Source: a virus (Duplodnaviria > Heunggongvirae > Uroviricota > Caudoviricetes). Taken from it: a stretch of 43,294 bases of DNA. Where the stretch lies: IMG/VR virus record IMGVR_UViG_2609460053_000008; one strand, written 5' to 3'. The notes beneath the pieces were generated by a model. That model did no database searches, was not told the origin of the DNA, and was given only the letters and a program-made list of their open reading frames with translations. This document shows positions 2,604 through 18,717 of the stretch, piece after piece. The translations under genes were made by a program, and so were the position numbers. How positions within the stretch are numbered: the first letter of the stretch is position 1; the number at the start of each line of letters is the position of its first letter.

Positions 2604-3656
2604 TCAGGAGCCGATATATTCTGGTTTCATATCTGTCAGTGTCGTTTTATACGCCTCATATAATTCTCCCAGATGTGGTCGTGCAGCATTCAGCGTATTT
2701 TCCAGAGCAATAAATTTTTGTTCTGCTTCTGGATCACCTGATGAAGGCAGGTCATTTATCATCTTCTCAATACGGGCAATAGCATTGAGACGGTGATGAC
2801 GCTGAACCACTTTTCCTTTAAGTTCTGTGTAGAGAGCGCCAAGTGTATTTTTATGATCTTCCACTTCCTGGCGAAGTGCTGTTGTTTCTCCGGTGCTTTG
2901 TGCCTGCTCAATACGTTCACGGAAAGCACTGATCCAGTTTTCCCCGGCATCCTGCTCAATAATTGTTGTTTCACGTTCCGCACGGCAGGCGGATGTGTTT
3001 TTATGTTCCTGAACCGGATTAATGATTTTTTCCTGTGGTTCGTCCAGTTCGTCCCGGGTGTACACTCCAAGAATCACTTCAGGGCAATAAAGGCGCGCCC
3101 AGCGTTTCAGAGCCAGATAGGCAAGCTGCTGGCGAGGATCATCGGCCCATAACGTTGAGTTACGTGTTCTGGCCTGCGCCAGAAGTAACTCCAGTACGCG
3201 TGGCTTGCTCTCTCCGCGTAGTGTTGCCTGGACGCGAACACCGATCCCGTTTTCATCGGCCAGCTTCCAGCCAGGTACACGATATTCTTTCCCCTTGTCG
3301 TTCTTCCTGATTTCAAATTTCCCGATAATTTTTTCCCACGGCCCGAACCAGTCATATTCAATACGCCCGGTTAGCGGCCCACGAGTACTGATTACGGCAT
3401 TAACCAGTTGCGCTTCATATCCGAGCACACCATTCACAACGAAAGTTTTCTGAGCTACTGCGTAAGGGTTCATTTGCCACTGCATCGCCTGCATGGTGAT
3501 GGCCATGCAGTCTGATGGATTTCCCCGGAGGTGTTCCGGTACAGTAGCCATGCCGGAAGCCATTACCTGGGAAAATGTCTGAATTGCAGCCAGGGACTGA
3601 GGGCTGAAAACCGCAACATTAGAGTTAATATTTTCTTGTTGAGTTAATTCGTTCAT
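2604..3656 (-). CDS. Putative single-strand annealing recombinase (RecT-like position, downstream of recE)
   Basis: 350 aa; start sits 12 nt after recE stop in the same operon; family assigned by position only, sequence not confidently matched. Confidence 0.5.
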   Translation of the reverse strand: MNELTQQENINSNVAVFSPQSLAAIQTFSQVMASGMATVPEHLRGNPSDCMAITMQAMQWQMNPYAVAQKTFVVNGVLGYEAQLVNAVISTRGPLTGRIEYDWFGPWEKIIGKFEIRKNDKGKEYRVPGWKLADENGIGVRVQATLRGESKPRVLELLLAQARTRNSTLWADDPRQQLAYLALKRWARLYCPEVILGVYTRDELDEPQEKIINPVQEHKNTSACRAERETTIIEQDAGENWISAFRERIEQAQSTGETTALRQEVEDHKNTLGALYTELKGKVVQRHHRLNAIARIEKMINDLPSSGDPEAEQKFIALENTLNAARPHLGELYEAYKTTLTDMKPEYIGS

Positions 3657-3667
3657 TGTGTCCTTCC

Positions 3668-6600
3668 TCAGATGCTCAGTGCTTCAAGACGACGAAGATC
3701 AAAGTCGTTTAATTCGTCGGTATAACTTTCGGTAATCGGTGCTGGCCAGTTGTTTGTCTCCAGAGCTTCGTTTATCTGTCGTAGTGTCCGGCGATATTCC
3801 TGTCGACCAAGTTCCAGGAGTTCCTGCGAGGCTTCCACGACGGCCACCCAGTGATAGCCAGCATCTTTGTTGACGAAGATCCAGAAAAATTTGTCCAGGT
3901 TTGCCACATCGCAATACATTGCTGCGCTGAGGTGATAATCACGTTCAATAATTTCACGGTGCAGGCGATCTTTCAGTCGTTCCTGTCGCACATAACCGAG
4001 GCTGACTGACTTCACGTCGGCGCAAATGCTTTCGTATGGCAGCCGGATTTCGATATCAGGACGGACCCTGATTTCCAGCCCGGTTTCTTCATCAAACCCG
4101 AAATAGCTGATTTCAGATTTGCGATCCGGGTGGTTGAGTAGCCTTGCTGCATCGGTATTGTTTTGCAGTGCCGCGTGAATATTTTTTGCCTGTTCATACA
4201 TATCCGGACTGATAAACGTTTTCCCGGCGTTTTCTTCTTGCTGGCGTTTTTGCCAGTCCTCCAGCGTCACCAGTTCCGGGCGAATTTTCCGCGCGATTTC
4301 GGTTAATTGCTCTTTTGTGCCACTGATGTTGTAAGGCAAAGATTTAGCACGTTCTTTTTTTGCCAGTTCTGGGTCTACAGCTTCAATTTGATCCAGAAGC
4401 TGCTCCCGTGCTCCACTGGTTTTCAACAGAGGAGGGAGGCTTGCGTTGTATTCTTTAATACAGGCTTTCATTGCTGATGCTGTGTGTTTTTCCCCCTCAG
4501 GAATACGCCGAAATTCCACCGGAAGCGAACCGTAAAGGATGCCTGTTTCTTCGGCCCCAGCACTTATAGACAGTGGCTGTATAAGAGTGCTGTTGTAGCT
4601 TTCGATCCACTCTTTCATCTGCTCTGGTGTCATCAGTGCTGGCAGACTGGCATTGTGTTTTTTAATGATGGCGATCAGTTCGTTAGAAGTAGTAACCACA
4701 TATTCAGGAACCGGTACCGGAATGGCATATTCATCAGCGAATTTATCCGTTTCCAGAACATAGCTGTGAATGATCCGCCCACGCAGCAGTGCATCACTTT
4801 CCTCGTTCGGAATAGTTCCGGCAATGTGCCGCCCGTGGTAATACATCAGGCTGATACGGGCATCCTTCAGCATCGTGCTGCTTATTCCGTTGGCGGAGTG
4901 ATAAACCTCGTTCGGGAGGTTTTCATAGCGGCCAGGCTCGAAATATGATGGCCACATGATTTCAGTTACTACAGGTGCTGTCGCTTCACCAGTTTCATCA
5001 CCGCAATCGCGATGCAGATCGCTGCCAGCATTCTCATTGTGCGGATGTTCAGGGCCTTCCATTTCCTCCGGCTCTTTTTCCTGAGATTCATCCAGATTTT
5101 CTTCATTAAAGGTTTCCTGATACGTTGCGTCGCCCATCACCGCGCCACAGTCAGGACAGTTGCCGCCGCCAGTCTGACCGCAGGCGGTGCAAACTTTCTC
5201 CGTTTCCTGTTGTTGCACTACTGGCTCAGGCTGTTTCGTTTCTGGCTCGTTTTGTTGCGTATTTGGGTCGTTCTGTTCCGTTTCTGGCTGATTCTGGTAC
5301 ACAGAATCGCGGGTCTGGATCCCCTTAACCCATTTCGGATCATTCGGGTCGCTAATCCCTTCAACAAATTCTCCGCGAGAGGCAGCCAGTAATTTGTCTG
5401 CATCGACAGGATTTTTGGGCGGAATGTTTTTCCGGGCTTCATAGAGTTCTGCCCGCAGTTTCTGATATTTCGCATCAACAGAATTTACCTGTGACTGAGC
5501 ATCCAGCGGCTGCGTGTCCTGATGATGTTCAGTTGCATCCGGTTCCACTGTTTCAGCCGTTGCCTGTTCATCTGCCATTGCGCAAGATGGTTGCAGTTTT
5601 TCTTCATCATCCTGTTTTTCTTCTTCTGTTACACGCTGCGGCATCGGGGCAGAGGAACGACCGCAGGCAATATCCACGATTTCTGGATCAGGGTTGGCAT
5701 GATCAGTTTCAGTCAGTACTTTGTTAAGATATTCAGTGACGTGTGCGGGGATAACCTCGATCCCAATTGGTGCTTCTTTTACGGACGCAACCACGATGGC
5801 GCGGGAATAATCCAGCCCGCCAGGCATGGTGATGAATTTGTCGCGGAAAACAGAAAAGGGCGGTTTATTTTCAGCGATAATTTCCTCGACACGTTTAGCG
5901 TGTGCCGGATGAAGGTTATAAATGTCCACGTCCATTGAACGAGCCAGTACGCCAGTCGCTACGTCGCGCGCCAGTGACGTCAGATCGTGAACGAAACCTT
6001 CGCCGCGATCGGTGAGGTTCCCGCCGCCAGCATTAGCGCCGGAAGCCGTGCGCGTGATGCATGAAACACGATTTCCTTTCATCCACTCTTTTGTCAGCAG
6101 ACCGCGATCGGTGTAGTCTGCGTCCAGGTATGCTTCGAAAAAAGCAGTCATCAGCCCCAGGCTTGAATTGCCTGGATTAGGGAAAACTCTGTCAGTATCA
6201 CGCACCAGTTTGTGGAGATCGCGAATTTCCAGCGGGTCGAGCAGGCTGGTTTTGTGGGAAACAGCCAGGGCAGTAACAGCTGGTAGTTCTTCAGCTCGTG
6301 CAATGTGTAATGCCTGTAGTTCGTCGCGTGAAACGTGCGTTACCGGTTTTTCGCTGCCGTGTTGAGCAAGCCAGCGAATGGGCAGCTCCTGACCGGAAAT
6401 CGGGAGTAGCATATTCTCCTCAATCTCCGTCATGTCTTCGCCATTAACATTGGTATTGTCAGTGCTGGCTGGTTTGTCCTGCGCAGAGGATGAGGGCGTG
6501 ATAAATACCATTGTGATGCCATCTTCCCCGCCTTTTTCGTAACGGTTGCAGAATTCCGTATCAAATACGCCTTCTGGTGGAAGGTCATCAACAACGGGCA

Positions 6601-14258: not shown

Positions 14259-14460
14259 ATACAGCGAACGCCATTGGTTTAGTTGGATATTTACTGTGCC
14301 GGACAAAAACGGTTTGCGGGGAAATCTTAGTTAAGTAGAATGACTGCGGGTGCTTGAGGCTATCTGTCTCAGGCATGAACACCAAAAGGCAGATAGAGAA
14401 AAGCCCCAGTTAACATTACGCGTCCTGCAAGACGCTTAACATTAATCTGAGGCCATATCT

Positions 14461-14520
14461 ATGCGACACATAGAGATTAGCCTCTTACGGACCGAAAGGT
14501 CAAGGAGAAGCAGGCTATGA
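14461..14520 (+). CDS. mok: mok-like leader ORF overlapping the hok start
   Basis: 19-codon ORF MRHIEISLLRTERSRRSRL ending in TGA that overlaps hok ATG (CTATGA). Confidence 0.4.
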   Translation: MRHIEISLLRTERSRRSRL

Positions 14521-14672
14521 AGCAGCAAAAGGCGATGTTAATCGCCCTGATCGTCATCTGTTTAACCGTCATAGTGACGGCACTGGTAACGAGGAAAGAC
14601 CTCTGCGAGGTACGAATCCGAACCGGCCAGACGGAGGTCGCTGTCTTCACAGCTTACGAACCTGAGGAGTAA
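14517..14672 (+). CDS. hok: Hok/Gef family type I toxin (51 aa)
   Basis: MKQQKAMLIALIVICLTVIVTALVTRKDLCEVRIRTGQTEVAVFTAYEPEE; hallmark TRK(D/S)LCE motif; matches recalled HokD/RelF. Confidence 0.8.
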   Translation: MKQQKAMLIALIVICLTVIVTALVTRKDLCEVRIRTGQTEVAVFTAYEPEE

Positions 14673-14742
14673 GAGACCTGGCGGGGGAGAAATCCCTCGC
14701 CACCTCTGATGTGTCAGGCATCCTCAACGCACCCGTACTTAA

Positions 14743-14761
14743 CCCGCTTCGGCGGGTTTTT
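14743..14761 (+). terminator. Rho-independent terminator after hok
   Basis: CCCGC-TTCG-GCGGG hairpin followed by TTTTT. Confidence 0.65.
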
Positions 14762-14946
14762 GTTGCGTGCTGAATGTGCAGGGTGAAAAATAACCATATA
14801 TTTGATTATATACACAACAAAAAATAAAAGTCATTGTACCTGCACATTAAACAATCAAATATACGGCGTGAAATAAATATTTTTCAGATTAATATTTTTG
14901 TCTCTATGTGGATATAACCGTTTGTACTTATAAACCTGGAGGCATC

Positions 14947-15230: not shown

Positions 15231-15830
15231 ATGGCGCATATACAACTGGTCAAACAAACCTCTTCCGGATTACTTCTCCCGGCGACGCCGGAGAGTTGCG
15301 ATTTTTTGCATCAAATCAAAATAGGTGAGTGGATACACGCAGACTTTAAGCGTGTGCGTAACTACGCATTCCACAGGCGTTTTTTCAAACTCCTGCAGCT
15401 CGGATTCGATTACTGGACTCCGGTCGGTGGGGCGATCACGCCTCGCGAACGAGAACTGGTGTCTGGTTTCGTTGATTTCCTATGCGAATCAGTAGGTCGG
15501 GAACATACGCCAGCCCTGAGTGATGCTGCAGAGCAATACCTTAATACCGTTGCGACGCGTAGAACCCGTGATACGGCATTGCTCAAGTCATTTGATGCCT
15601 TCCGTGAATGGGTAACCATTCAGGCCGGATTTTACACCGAGCATTTTTATCCGGACGGTAGCCGTGGGCGTCGGGCAAAATCCATCGCGTTTGCGAATAT
15701 GGACGAAACCGAGTTTCAGCAGGTTTATAAAGCCGTACTGAATGTGCTGTGGAACTGGATCCTGTTCCGTAAATTTTCCTCTCCGGAGGAAGTCGAAAAT
15801 GTGGCCGCGCAGCTGCTGGAGTTTGCGTAA
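15231..15830 (+). CDS. Nin-region protein (DUF1367/YbcN-like)
   Basis: 199 aa; position upstream of YbcO-like and Q genes; family recalled, not verified. Confidence 0.45.
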   Translation: MAHIQLVKQTSSGLLLPATPESCDFLHQIKIGEWIHADFKRVRNYAFHRRFFKLLQLGFDYWTPVGGAITPRERELVSGFVDFLCESVGREHTPALSDAAEQYLNTVATRRTRDTALLKSFDAFREWVTIQAGFYTEHFYPDGSRGRRAKSIAFANMDETEFQQVYKAVLNVLWNWILFRKFSSPEEVENVAAQLLEFA

Positions 15831-16120
15831 TGGTGGATTTACGTAAAGCGGCGCGGGGGCAGATGTGCACCGTCAGAATTCCTGGCTACTGCAACCACAA
15901 TCCCGAAACTTCTGTGCTGGCGCATTACAGGCTGGCGGGGACGTGCGGAACAGCGACAAAACCACACGATATGCAGGCAGCGATTGCCTGTAGCTCATGC
16001 CACGATTTAATCGACGGGCGGGTAAAAACCAGCGATTACACCAAAGAAGAATTACGCCTGATGCATGCAGAAGGTGTTTTTCGCACACAAGAAATCTGGA
16101 GAAAGGAAGGTTATTTATGA
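15830..16120 (+). CDS. YbcO-like putative nuclease (DUF1364), Cys-rich
   Basis: MVDLRKAARGQMCTVRIPGYCNHNPETSVLAHYR resembles DLP12 YbcO; ATGG start overlap with upstream stop. Confidence 0.6.
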   Translation: MVDLRKAARGQMCTVRIPGYCNHNPETSVLAHYRLAGTCGTATKPHDMQAAIACSSCHDLIDGRVKTSDYTKEELRLMHAEGVFRTQEIWRKEGYL

Positions 16121-16671
16121 TTTACCCAACAAATACAGGCAAAAGCGGGGAACACCTTCGTCTCACCACGCTGGAAAGTGTCTGGATTCAGGGAAAACTG
16201 CGCATGTGGGGGCGCTGGTCGTATATTGGCGGCGGTAAGACGGGAAATATGTTTAACCAGTTGCTGACCTCTAAAAAGCTGACAAAAACGGCAATTAACG
16301 AGGCGCTCCGGAGGATGAAAAAAGCAGGTCTGGACAAACCTGAACTTGAGGCTTTTTTGCGGGATATGATTAACGGCAAGCAAAAGAGCTGGCTGGCACA
16401 TTGTACTGATTCAGAGGCATTAATAATCGACAGGGTTATTGGAGAAGTGTTGGCAGAACACCCAGGATTGATTTGTATCCTCCGGCAACGATATGAAGGG
16501 AGGGGGATGACTAAGCGAAAAATGGCTGAATTGCTGAATGATTCACACCCTGAGTGGTGTTACGCCACGTGCCGTAATCGCATAGATGCGTGGTTGAAAA
16601 TGGCAGAGTTTATGCTCTATCTGCCGATGCGTGATGCATTCTCTTCCGGGGATTTAAAAACCGTCTGTTGA
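16117..16671 (+). CDS. Late-gene antitermination protein Q-like
   Basis: 184 aa; ATGA overlap with the upstream gene; immediately followed by a PR'-like promoter and a short transcript terminator; upstream of lysis genes. Confidence 0.55.
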   Translation: MIYPTNTGKSGEHLRLTTLESVWIQGKLRMWGRWSYIGGGKTGNMFNQLLTSKKLTKTAINEALRRMKKAGLDKPELEAFLRDMINGKQKSWLAHCTDSEALIIDRVIGEVLAEHPGLICILRQRYEGRGMTKRKMAELLNDSHPEWCYATCRNRIDAWLKMAEFMLYLPMRDAFSSGDLKTVC

Positions 16672-16697
16672 CTCAATCTGTTATCCGGGGCTATATT
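16668..16697 (+). promoter_or_regulatory. PR'-like late promoter (TTGACT-N18-TATATT)
   Basis: Near-consensus -35/-10 overlapping the Q stop codon. Confidence 0.55.
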
Positions 16698-16758
16698 CCT
16701 CACGCGCCAGCAAAATCTGGCGTCGGGATTAGCACCCCGGATGTTTACGGAGCGATAT

Positions 16759-16780
16759 GAGACGCGCCCGCGTCTTTTTT
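16759..16780 (+). terminator. tR'-like terminator about 75 nt downstream of the late promoter
   Basis: GACGC-GCCC-GCGTC hairpin followed by TTTTTT. Confidence 0.6.
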
Positions 16781-16944
16781 CATATCGTTTGCACAGTCAC
16801 ATTCGCGATTTATGGCGGGCTGTGTGGGGGAGCCGAAAGGCTCGCCGGTTTCCGTACCCGGTAGTGCTAACCCCGCACAGTTCGCCACCACGATGATTAG
16901 CACCTGACGGTGGCGATAATGTCCAAATGTACGGAGTTATCGTT

Positions 16945-17526
16945 ATGGCTACTCAGATTTCTGTCGAAACTCTTTCCCCAATTACACACAACCAAATTCC
17001 CGTTATCACTACCGAGTTACTGGCACAGCTTTACTGTACCGAGATCAACAACATCAAAGTAAATTACACCCGTAATTCCGAGCGTTTTGTTGAGGGTAAA
17101 CACTTTTTCAAGGTTGTTGGTGATGAGTTGAAAAATTTGCGGGTTACTTTAAGTAACTCACAAAATTTGCAACCATCTTTAAGAGGGTTACAAATTTCCC
17201 CGAAAGCCCGCTCCCTCATCCTCTGGACAGAACGCGGAGCAGCCCGTCATGCCAAAATGCTCGAAACCGATCAGGCGTGGGATGTGTTCGAAAAACTGGA
17301 AGACTGCTATTTCAGACAAAAGGATCCGTCAGCGCCAGTTTCATGCCAGAAAAGTTACGACACGCGAGTTCTCTGTTATCAGCAAGGCGGTGTCACTGTT
17401 TCCACAATTCAGTTGCGGGATGATGATATTGTTATTTCCCTTGAGTCATGGCTGGAACTGGCGAGAGCCAATGGTTGGTTTGTTGTTCGCAGAGATAAAC
17501 TGGTGGAAAGGCTGATGCAGCTTTAA
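16945..17526 (+). CDS. ORF6N/KilA-N-like domain protein, putative antirepressor-like
   Basis: N-terminal ITTELLAQLYCTEINNIKVNYTRNSERFVEGKHFF resembles the ORF6N domain; sits in the Q-to-lysis slot. Confidence 0.4.
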   Translation: MATQISVETLSPITHNQIPVITTELLAQLYCTEINNIKVNYTRNSERFVEGKHFFKVVGDELKNLRVTLSNSQNLQPSLRGLQISPKARSLILWTERGAARHAKMLETDQAWDVFEKLEDCYFRQKDPSAPVSCQKSYDTRVLCYQQGGVTVSTIQLRDDDIVISLESWLELARANGWFVVRRDKLVERLMQL

Positions 17527-17663
17527 AAAAGTTCTTGCAATTTTAGCCATAAACTGCTTCAATTCCGGTACGCTTCGCAAAGCTTTATCGCGAGGCGAAC
17601 CAAGCGCATAAACTTTACCAGAACCCGCCATTGAGCGGGTTTTGTTGTTTCTGGAGAACACCC

Positions 17664-17894
17664 ATGAAATTTTATGAATTATCTTCTGAGTCCCGATCTC
17701 AGGCCAAAATCACACTGGGTCAGTTGATTGTGGCTCGGGCTAACACCGGGATGGATGATTTTGAAAATTTGGGGCATTGCATCGCTGCCGCGTTTATTGC
17801 GATGGAGCGCCATGAAAGCGCCCCTGAGGTTGGTGAGGGGCGTAGCGGGAACGGAATACCCGTTAATGGCGATCAAAACTCACTTCTTGATTAA
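17664..17894 (+). CDS. Hypothetical protein (76 aa)
   Basis: GGAGA RBS; 3' end overlaps the convergent 17880-18157 gene. Confidence 0.4.
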   Translation: MKFYELSSESRSQAKITLGQLIVARANTGMDDFENLGHCIAAAFIAMERHESAPEVGEGRSGNGIPVNGDQNSLLD

Positions 17895-18157
17895 ATGCCA
17901 TGAGCGATCTGCCGCCTGGGTGACTAGCACCCGAGGGTTCTTTTTTATTGTCCCAGCGATGGCTACAACTTCATCTCGGACTGCGCGAGCAGATGCGTTT
18001 TTTTCGGCTGTGTACTCAGCGTCAGGAAGATAAAACCAGTTTCCAGCTCCATCTTGAATTTCGCGAAAGTATCTTCGGGATTCCATCGCCTCATGAAGGC
18101 GATTGTAGTCATCGGATGATGCACCCACAAGCTCAACGCGGACAGTAAAACTAGCCA
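17880..18157 (-). CDS. Hypothetical protein (92 aa), opposite strand to late genes
   Basis: AAGGAG RBS before ATG (MASFTVRVELVGASSDDYNRLHEAMESRRY...). Confidence 0.5.
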
Positions 18158-18375
18158 TATATACTCCTTTAATTGATATGGTTACTTTTGGCGATTTAAC
18201 GATATCAAACACGAGGATATACCGCCAGAAGCTTAATCTGGCACTCCATCTGGCCCCGGCATGTCCCGGGGCTTTTTCGTTGTTAGGCTCCGGAAACATC
18301 CTCGACTTCTTGTGAGCAAGCCTGAGAGCCTGAATCTTACATTTAGCACCATCCGAACTCTCGGAGGTGAGGCTT

Positions 18376-18717
18376 ATGAAAATGCACAATGCCCCTCATT
18401 CCTGGCCTGACTTACTGGAACTCTTACAAAGTTGGTGGCGTGGAGATACGCCGCTGGGCGCAGTGGTCATGTCAATTATTATGGCTGGTTTGCGCATTGC
18501 CTATTTTGGCGGTGGCGGCGGCTGGAAACGAAAAACGCTTGAGATTCTGCTTTGTGGTGCCCTGACGCTGACCTTTGCATCCGCGCTTGAGTACGTTGGA
18601 TGGCCTAAATCACTTTCTGTTGCCATTGGTGGTGGGGTGGGGCTGATTGGTGTTGATGCTATTCGTGGTGCGGCAATGAGGGTCATCGGTAACAAGTTTG
18701 GTGCCCATAAGGAGTAA
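18376..18717 (+). CDS. Holin, lambda S-like class I, with MKM dual-start motif
   Basis: GGAGG RBS; three hydrophobic segments; pattern parallels lambda S; immediately upstream of the endolysin. Confidence 0.75.
   Translation: MKMHNAPHSWPDLLELLQSWWRGDTPLGAVVMSIIMAGLRIAYFGGGGGWKRKTLEILLCGALTLTFASALEYVGWPKSLSVAIGGGVGLIGVDAIRGAAMRVIGNKFGAHKE

Follow-up and report, generated by a model that had tools for sequence, protein, structure and literature searches.

What do two small genes do that converge and overlap in the middle of the late operon of a prophage, and do they belong together with the gene that precedes them? This question is raised by a lambdoid prophage of the Caudoviricetes (IMG/VR record IMGVR_UViG_2609460053_000008), whose whole stretch of 43,294 nucleotides is called the window here. 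Three genes lie between its Q-type antiterminator gene and its holin gene. They encode an antirepressor of 193 aa (16945-17526, plus strand), a protein of 76 aa, orf76 (17664-17894, plus strand, co-oriented with the late operon), and a protein of 92 aa, orf92 (17880-18158, minus strand, against the late operon). Direct reading of the sequence gives a 3'-3' overlap of orf76 and orf92 of 15 bp (17880-17894), in which the codons of both are in register. Each small gene has a ribosome-binding site, GGAG 7 nt 5' of the ATG of orf76 and AGGAG 6 nt 5' of that of orf92. The 1.8 kb that was tested is identical to E. coli FDAARGOS_1289, in which RefSeq has the same three genes. An earlier note on this DNA had described the three open reading frames (ORFs) and the overlap, and these are present, except that the first protein has 193 and not 194 aa and the minus-strand gene begins at 18158 and not at 18157.

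The same note had treated the three genes as one accessory cassette. They are not one cassette, because the first gene is the antirepressor of a known module controlled by the RNAs IsrK and C4, which starts upstream of that gene. The interval is composed of two independent units, the antirepressor module (Unit 1, 16668-17650) and a two-gene cassette of orf76 and orf92 (Unit 2, 17655-18166). For Unit 2, the reading that we prefer is a mobile two-gene cassette working as an orientation-coded switch beside Unit 1 as antirepressor module, and we hold it tentatively, with a confidence that falls somewhat short of even. The architecture of the cassette is robust, and its function is what we infer.

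A swappable cassette in a cargo slot

Unit 2 has a length of 512 bp, with exact boundaries at 17654/18167. Homology with E. coli strain E9 (L003) and with the phage record PP818812 ends at 17654/17659, and the replacements that affect only orf92 have breakpoints at 17878/18170. The same flanks hold orf76 with orf92, or orf76 with a 189-aa membrane protein (phrog_11870), or the membrane protein with a 71-aa minus-strand gene, and these three alternative contents agree with the proposal of the earlier note that the interval from Q to the holin is a cargo slot. Among 5,426 complete E. coli genomes, orf76 was found in 23, of which 18 have the full pair and five have orf76 with the membrane protein; orf92 alone was found in none. 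The alternative cargo is a predicted membrane protein, encoded at 2921-3490 of locus L002 and at 2637-3206 of locus L003, and the two strains share 59% identity in it. In strain E9, the membrane protein gene and the 71-aa gene (phrog_14506, 3175-3390) are convergent and overlapping, which makes a second convergent pair at the same site.

Both ends of the cassette are marked by elements that recur elsewhere. On the left, an intrinsic terminator (17619-17650, plus strand; also given as 17619-17644), which follows the antirepressor gene, abuts the ribosome-binding site of orf76, and the layout of terminator, TCTGGAG and ATG is also found 5' of orf76 homologues in Kluyvera and Enterobacter loci. 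On the right, a conserved block of about 37 nt lies 5' of orf92 (18173-18209, minus strand; TTTGATATCGTTAAATCGCCAAAAGTAACCATATCAA) and is a candidate promoter, operator or leader. This block is near-identical 5' of GhoS-like genes, as the relatives of orf92 are called here after their fold, in Kluyvera, Silvania and Enterobacter loci and in IMG/VR contigs (L009, L013, L069, L078, L120 and L123), and beyond it the sequences diverge. Reading of the DNA of L120 and L123 showed both elements together, the terminator abutting the ribosome-binding site of the orf76 homologue and the conserved block 5' of the GhoS-like gene. An inverted repeat in the block was considered as an RNA hairpin, and because it is without compensatory changes, no hairpin is claimed.

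GhoS-like genes have two further classes of leader. One carries TTCCACAGTCAA twice, and the other, which includes that of ymfI in the E. coli K-12 prophage e14, carries TTCACC-16-TGGTATGCT, an element resembling an extended -10 promoter. In addition, locus L120 (ENA ERZ22282808, metagenome-assembled), which encodes P0046, an orf76 homologue that NCBI lists under Kluyvera ascorbata, has a tRNA-like sequence at about 3620-3700. This sequence lies between the GhoS-like gene and the lysis genes, and a tRNA-Arg is found in the same slot of prophage Gifsy-1.

Convergent geometry and its partners

The first point to settle is whether orf76 is a gene at all, since the overlap might be an artefact of annotation. 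Its AlphaFold model has a moderate predicted local distance difference test score (pLDDT 68.7) with the last third disordered, no family name attaches to it, and it changes mostly at the protein level, with a ratio of nonsynonymous to synonymous polymorphism (pN/pS) near or above 1 among close alleles, all of which would suit an artefact. However, orf76 is a full-length member of phrog_26625 (E-value 2e-46), a family without known function, and has 19 homologues in one search, all unnamed; over all searches, homologues are known from at least eight enterobacterial genera (Escherichia, Enterobacter, Citrobacter, Kluyvera, Kosakonia, Yersinia, Xenorhabdus and Photorhabdus). The alignment has 19 invariant residues in the N-terminal 48 and its indels are in-frame; the Shine-Dalgarno sequence is good, and the RefSeq call is independent. 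An artefact is thus very improbable. Both orf76 and orf92 are more than chance ORFs, as they belong to PHROG families, have homologues in several genera and overlap recurrently.

The orf76 protein is acidic (isoelectric point 4.8), and its model consists of helices 8-27 and 33-49, which form a hairpin, and a disordered tail (55-76). No usable match was found in Pfam, NCBIfam or PADLOC, no fold in the PDB matched the helical hairpin, and tblastn against 50,697 phage records gave nothing. The earlier note could not assign families to the two small proteins; orf92 can now be placed as YmfI/GhoS-like by phrog_8894 and its fold, and only orf76 is still without an assignable family. Homology of either to ordinary late regulators or lysis accessories, which would have spoken against the note, did not turn up.

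The geometry of the pair is conserved far beyond E. coli. A scan of one genome per species revealed 16 Enterobacterales loci in which a small ORF converges on a GhoS-like gene with a 3' overlap of 4-15 bp. Aeromonas phage pAEv1818, Cronobacter phage phiES15, Pseudomonas phage Cruim01 and ymfI/ymfJ of e14 have the same layout with overlaps of 24-63 bp. From the Kluyvera and Enterobacter homologues of orf76, eight places were found with Q, orf76 and a convergent 95-aa GhoS-like gene overlapping by 4 bp, and Q occurs there in three gene-call variants (PF06530, PF06323 and none recorded). In IMG/VR, a convergent partner of a recurrent family accompanies the GhoS-like gene at 70 of 80 loci, and some of these contigs may come from prophages already included as genome loci. 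In all mapped neighbourhoods except that of Burkholderia phage BgManors32, the GhoS-like gene is embedded in a lytic operon against which it alone is oriented, and its partner runs in the direction of that operon. The settings are either the early-left (PL-type) operon, immediately behind the repressor, or the late operon, where the gene follows Q, an antirepressor or Rz. The convergent pair is therefore a conserved unit whose overlap recurs in many independent loci, and some functional coupling, as the earlier note had suggested, is very likely from this sequence evidence.

The identity of the partner is far less constant than its position, and in all loci together there are at least six partner families, five of which are unrelated to each other. 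The partners at the 70 loci fall into six families, P1 (orf76-like, 29 loci), P2 (21), P3 (YmfJ-like, 6), P4 (6), P5 (5) and P6 (3). All six are acidic, and profile comparison detected no mutual homology among them save a weak signal between P4 and P5. One ancient partner family was considered and dropped, as the profiles of orf76 and YmfJ, like those of the six families among themselves, are non-homologous apart from that P4-P5 signal. Members of unrelated families (L004-L119) share similar short terminal tails rich in Gly, Ser and acidic residues, often with one Cys (SAPDVCEDG, GEAACDGS, GAACSGS). The overlap was tried as the cause of these Cys/Gly-rich tails and does not explain the shared composition, because the tails lie outside the overlapped bases.

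Such free exchange could mean that there is no protein partnership. In that case the two genes would be separate tail-to-tail morons, or orf92 would mainly be a cis-acting antisense unit or roadblock that damps read-through into the lysis genes. This would fit partner families that have no common origin in sight and are exchanged without regard to the tree of the GhoS-like proteins, the occurrence of orf76 without orf92, and a geometry that is invariant while the partner sequence is not. Against this, a partner accompanies the GhoS-like gene at 70 of 80 viral loci and, wherever present, overlaps it in one constant orientation, and the cassette travels as a whole, together with boundary elements that its copies share. 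Furthermore, close alleles of orf92 show purifying selection (pN/pS about 0-0.2, from small counts), and the family of orf92 comprises 2,383 clusters at 50% identity with E <= 0.001, of which 1,460 have E <= 1e-10; almost all are proteins of about 95 aa with one domain. Selection and family size indicate that the orf92 protein itself matters, and we consider the absence of a partnership distinctly unlikely. Among the top 150 matches of the family, the only long member is P0059 (499 aa), in which an integrase-like protein continues into the product of a downstream gene (MASFTTRVELH...), probably through a gene-calling fusion; it was therefore not taken as an informative domain fusion.

Excludons and phage morons are among the closest described arrangements. 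As in these, there is a convergent 3' overlap and one gene is embedded against a long operon, and the cassette, like a moron, has a terminator as its boundary and exchangeable content, comparable to the cargo gene gogA that Gifsy-1 carries in this slot. The difference is that here one protein family keeps its geometry across many phages while the opposing gene switches among families. No description of a counter-oriented GhoS-like gene with an exchangeable convergent partner in phage lytic operons was found in the searchable literature.

Another close system is the ymfI-ymfJ pair of e14, and K-12 homologues are the sole source of expression evidence. This pair is listed as a convergent excludon from RNA-seq data by ExcludonFinder (PMC12288877). 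The ymfJ gene, and not ymfI, belongs to the lytic (YmfT) iModulon of e14 and shows strong late induction in the SOS response. Searches of the literature for functional work on ymfI, ymfJ, DUF2622 or GhoS-like phage proteins returned none. Like orf92, YmfI is a member of phrog_8894 encoded by a lone counter-oriented gene in a lytic operon, with a small overlapping convergent partner, and in e14 this partner, YmfJ, is co-regulated with the lytic genes. In contrast, YmfJ has no relationship to orf76, ymfI and ymfJ overlap by 63 bp where orf76 and orf92 share 15 bp, the e14 pair lies in the early-left operon after the repressor rather than after Q, and several residues invariant in the orf92 clade are changed in YmfI.

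The GhoS-like protein and the proposed switch

The orf92 protein matches phrog_8894 over its full length (E 2e-38), as does K-12 YmfI (8.6e-40), and a profile of 21 orf92 homologues aligns to YmfI with an hhalign probability of 94.5%. Its AlphaFold model (pLDDT 96.3) has a ferredoxin-like fold with the order beta-alpha-beta-beta-beta-alpha-beta, and the best structural match in fold comparison is the type V antitoxin GhoS (E. coli YjdK, PDB 2LLZ), at 14% identity. GhoS surfaced by fold comparison only: the sequence profile of the family gave nothing significant against the PDB, Foldseek against viral structures (BFVD) gave no match at E <= 0.001, and the hhalign probability of the family against GhoS is only 19.9%. 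In the hhalign register, Asp15, Arg28, Gly45 and Phe55 of GhoS correspond to Glu9, His22, Gly39 and Tyr49 of orf92; His22, Gly39 and Tyr49 are invariant in the 21-sequence alignment, and Glu9 is nearly so. The Pfam GhoS model is matched weakly by 12 of the 21 homologues, two of which exceed its cut-off of 21 (P0007 with 22.1 and P0021 with 22.9 bits), and P0007 is 70% identical to orf92. Moreover, NCBI labels one homologue as GhoS and another as DUF2622. The protein is probably RNA-binding or RNA-cleaving.

In the orientation-coded switch that we prefer, the direction of each gene would decide when it is made. Since orf92 is read against the late operon, its product would accumulate only while the operon is quiet, that is, in the lysogen. 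Since orf76 lies immediately behind the terminator and is co-oriented, it would be made only when Q-modified polymerase reads through. This polymerase would then run antisense through orf92 on its way to the holin and turn it off, so that the two genes would exclude each other by convergent transcription. Finally, the orf76 protein would probably also antagonise the leftover orf92 protein. Such antagonism by an acidic partner is plausible and forms the weakest step, because the partners are unrelated and freely exchanged. Two observations count in its favour, the fast change of the orf76 protein against the purifying selection on orf92, and the report that the GhoS fold turns toxic with two substitutions (PMC4010927), which makes the restraint of such a protein plausible. 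The switch as a whole is favoured by the exact cassette boundaries, the recurrent overlap with a co-oriented partner, the terminator abutting the ribosome-binding site both here and in distant loci, and the K-12 data on ymfI and ymfJ; the lysogen may benefit from it.

Several findings weigh against this switch. The NCBIfam model NF051477 ("YmfI family phage protein") gives orf92 60.8 bits where its cut-off is 140; together with the match to phrog_8894 and the hhalign result, this makes orf92 a homologue and not an equivalog of YmfI. No match of orf92 to Pfam GhoS (PF11080) was found at E <= 0.1. Arg28, reported as the key catalytic residue of GhoS (PMC4010927), is replaced by His22 in orf92 and by Glu in K-12 YmfI, which leaves ribonuclease (RNase) activity of orf92 uncertain. 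The region 18159-18430 has no convincing sigma-70 promoter for orf92, with a best position weight matrix (PWM) score of 4.4 against 13.1 for the isrK promoter of Unit 1, and a strict search for TTGACA-N-TANNNT gave no credible one either, so that expression of orf92 in the lysogen is an assumption. PADLOC-DB v2, a catalogue of anti-phage defence systems, has no match for orf76, orf92, YmfI, YmfJ or the P2 partner. In five of the 23 E. coli genomes orf76 is kept without orf92. The unrelated partner families lie intermixed when placed on a rough tree of GhoS-like proteins, which argues against a specific protein-protein lock, and BgManors32 and most non-enterobacterial genome loci are without a conserved convergent partner.

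The resemblance to GhoS does not make the locus a GhoS/GhoT system. The modelled fold of orf92 is that of GhoS (Cas2-like ferredoxin), but orf92 is under the Pfam GhoS cut-off and the Arg28 position is replaced. In GhoS/GhoT, GhoT is a membrane toxin encoded by the downstream cistron, whereas the neighbour of orf92 is a soluble acidic protein on the opposite strand, and the context is a prophage lytic operon. The ORF list has no hydrophobic small ORF downstream of orf92, and hence a GhoT-like membrane toxin is absent.

The logic of type V systems might nevertheless apply in another form, with orf92 as an antitoxin-like RNase that guards the lysogen by destroying leaky transcripts of lethal lytic genes (the holin, or kil in the PL versions) and orf76 as the factor that lifts the block. 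GhoS, the best structural match, cleaves the mRNA of a small membrane-damaging toxin (PMC4010927). The gene directly behind the pair is the holin gene here and in L009, L010, L011, L013 and L120, and kil in phiES15. The isrK-type promoter farther upstream looks constitutive, and the isrK terminator is partly read through in Gifsy-1 (PMC4825925), which makes a leak into the lysis genes a real risk. However, the Xenorhabdus and Photorhabdus pairs lie after the lysis genes or by terminase or tail genes, where no lethal gene follows, and the catalytic Arg of GhoS is not conserved. We regard this guard function as unlikely.

About equally improbable is a toxin-antitoxin or abortive infection system, in which orf92 would be a toxic RNase and orf76 its labile antitoxin, both made in the lysogen, so that the prophage is stabilised or infected cells are killed. 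A conserved core with many unrelated, fast-evolving small acidic partners resembles toxin families whose antitoxins are promiscuous, two substitutions suffice to make the GhoS fold toxic, and the cassette sits in a variable cargo slot beside other candidate exclusion genes. The loss of orf92 with retention of orf76 in five genomes, and orf92 alone in none, fits this explanation and does not prove it. On the other hand, the genes are convergent and do not form an operon, and orf76 lies directly behind a terminator without a promoter of its own, which makes a steady supply of antitoxin in the lysogen doubtful. The lack of a PADLOC match speaks against it as well, and with neither a GhoT-like toxin nor a convincing orf92 promoter, the toxin-antitoxin or exclusion function suggested in the earlier note is not supported.

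The preferred switch has a more specific form, to which we give a low probability. In this form the GhoS-fold protein would cleave RNAs in the lysogen, either leaky holin or kil transcripts or the RNAs of invaders, and entry into the lytic cycle would silence it by antisense transcription and by an acidic inhibitor. In this reading the gene of the inhibitor would have been swapped many times for unrelated proteins, and the class would be widespread and so far undescribed. If the pair does prove to be a lysogeny/lysis-switched RNase with its antagonist, temperate phages would have a regulatory or defence module that is new, and in it many unrelated partners would naturally serve a single conserved effector. 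The more specific form would also give a function to ymfI and ymfJ of the K-12 y-ome, and type V toxin-antitoxin logic would reach prophage control. Apart from mechanism, a large unnamed family, with about 1,460 clusters at the 50% identity level and E <= 1e-10, is tied to the GhoS/Cas2 fold and embedded against phage lytic operons, with a convergent exchangeable partner, in nearly every mapped context (the exception being BgManors32). Two uncharacterised K-12 genes, ymfI and ymfJ, are included, so that a standard strain is available for an immediate test of the idea.

The antirepressor module and flanking genes

By its sequence, the region 16668-17650 is an antisense-RNA-gated antirepressor module of the kind known from isrK-orf45-anrP of Gifsy-1 and immI of phage P1. 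It starts with a promoter-like site, TTGACT-18-TATATT (16668-16697, plus strand, as are all elements of the module), which has 10/12 consensus matches and a PWM score of 13.1 and is equivalent to the isrK promoter. Both hexamers are kept in Gifsy-1, and the site is the sole strong one in the scanned parts of the interval from Q to the holin, where others score <=7.5. The a1/b1 target of C4 follows at 16691-16743 (Rfam c4-a1b1 RF03163, 49.8 bits, gathering 46.7), together with the IsrK RNA at 16704-16780 (Rfam isrK RF01394, 74.4 bits, gathering 50), whose intrinsic terminator was placed at 16759-16776 by a terminator scan. The C4-type antisense RNA lies at 16808-16892 (Rfam RF01695, 78 bits, gathering 45) and covers the full model (1-87). 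Its loop GTGCTAAC (16864-16871) is complementary to two identical targets GATTAGCAC, the first (16727-16735) inside the IsrK/a1b1 region and the second (16895-16903) at the 3' end of a leader ORF. This ORF encodes 31 aa (16812-16907), overlaps the C4 region and is the positional equivalent of orf45 of Gifsy-1; its ATG is about 109 nt after the predicted IsrK start, against a first AUG at +107 in Gifsy-1.

The antirepressor encoded next bears out the ORF6N assignment of the earlier note (Pfam ORF6N as N-terminal domain, E 8.6e-20). It is also a full-length match to phrog_2379 (anti-repressor, E 3.9e-91) and is 54% identical to STM2616 of Gifsy-1, i.e., AnrP (E 2e-65). The predicted transcript of isrK, leader and antirepressor has about 947 nt and ends at the terminator 17619-17650. 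All elements by which an IsrK/C4 module is recognised in sequence are thus found here, namely a C4 RNA, an IsrK/upstream target with promoter and terminator, covarying targets, and a leader ORF with antirepressor. In operation, the constitutive-looking promoter would give the short IsrK RNA, and read-through transcripts would hold the C4-type RNA, the leader ORF and the antirepressor. Pairing of the C4 loop with its two targets would set the translation of the leader and hence of the antirepressor, which would lead to prophage induction.

In phages P1 and P7, immI has the order c4 RNA - icd - ant, and the C4 RNA, located between a1/b1 and a downstream target, governs a small ORF coupled to the antirepressor. 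Its specificity is set by the complementarity of C4 loop and target. The present module likewise has a C4 antisense RNA with targets on both sides, a leader ORF and an antirepressor (Rfam RF01695, RF03163). Unlike immI, it follows Q directly among the late genes of a lambdoid prophage, its upstream target is a terminated small RNA (sRNA), IsrK, and its antirepressor is of the ORF6N type.

The closer relative is Gifsy-1, in which the order is antQ, isrK, orf45, anrP and isrJ, with a read-through transcript of about 910 nt (Hershko-Shalev et al. 2016, PMC4825925), similar in length to that predicted here. Translation of the leader ORF depends there on IsrK and is coupled to that of the antirepressor, which leads to induction (PMC4825925). 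The same coupling would hold here by analogy with that work. Both loci share the Q gene, the promoter, a terminated IsrK, a C4-like RNA (STnc1160 in Gifsy-1) over the leader ORF, the ORF6N-type antirepressor and a terminator, and the intergenic RNA region from antQ to anrP has 82% DNA column identity. They differ in the leader, which has 45 aa as orf45 and 31 aa here, and in the downstream cargo, a tRNA-Arg and the counter-oriented effector gene gogA there and orf76/orf92 here. Q of Gifsy-1 is annotated as similar to phage 82 Q, and that of the window matches DUF1133 and Phage_antitermQ, a distinction by annotation only.

Recognition within the module covaries between the two prophages. The pair GATTAGCAC/GTGCTAAC is replaced in Gifsy-1 (L128, 34070-34360) by GATTGGCGT, present twice, and ACGCCAAC; the loop and both targets differ at the same three positions, and each change is compensated. 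It appears from this that IsrK/C4 modules, like P1 and P7, come in distinct antisense "immunity" types, and it is in this specificity variant that the novelty of Unit 1 lies.

At the position of the sRNA isrJ in Gifsy-1, 3' of the antirepressor, no Rfam isrJ match was found. The spacer 17566-17652 (plus strand) folds into two hairpins (z = -3.9) and is preceded by a weak promoter-like site at 17535-17563. Furthermore, positions 15496-16545 of PP818812.1 ("Actinobacillus phage vB_Apl-pPE4") are 97.7% identical to 16611-17659 of the window, and its antirepressor is 97.4% identical, which is unexpectedly close for a Pasteurellaceae phage; the match stops exactly at the cassette boundary.

The left edge of the slot is the Q-type antiterminator gene (16117-16671, plus strand; Pfam DUF1133, E 6e-108, and Phage_antitermQ, E 1.6e-6), which has the same position as antQ in Gifsy-1. 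The right edge is a lambda-family holin gene (18376-18717, plus strand; Pfam Phage_holin_3_1, E 2.1e-27, and RefSeq annotation). In the gap between orf92 and the holin, a terminator-like hairpin with a T run (18252-18283, plus strand; eight pairs, seven of them G-C) would stop late-strand transcripts that lack antitermination. The holin begins with Met-Lys-Met (18376-18384), which resembles the dual-start arrangement of lambda S (holin/antiholin). Upstream of Q, a hok/sok type I toxin-antitoxin locus is located at 14348-14672 (Rfam sok, 106.7 bits, and a 51-aa HokD-like ORF), and it is followed at 14681-14762 by a weak, sub-threshold second isrK-like match of 24.8 bits.

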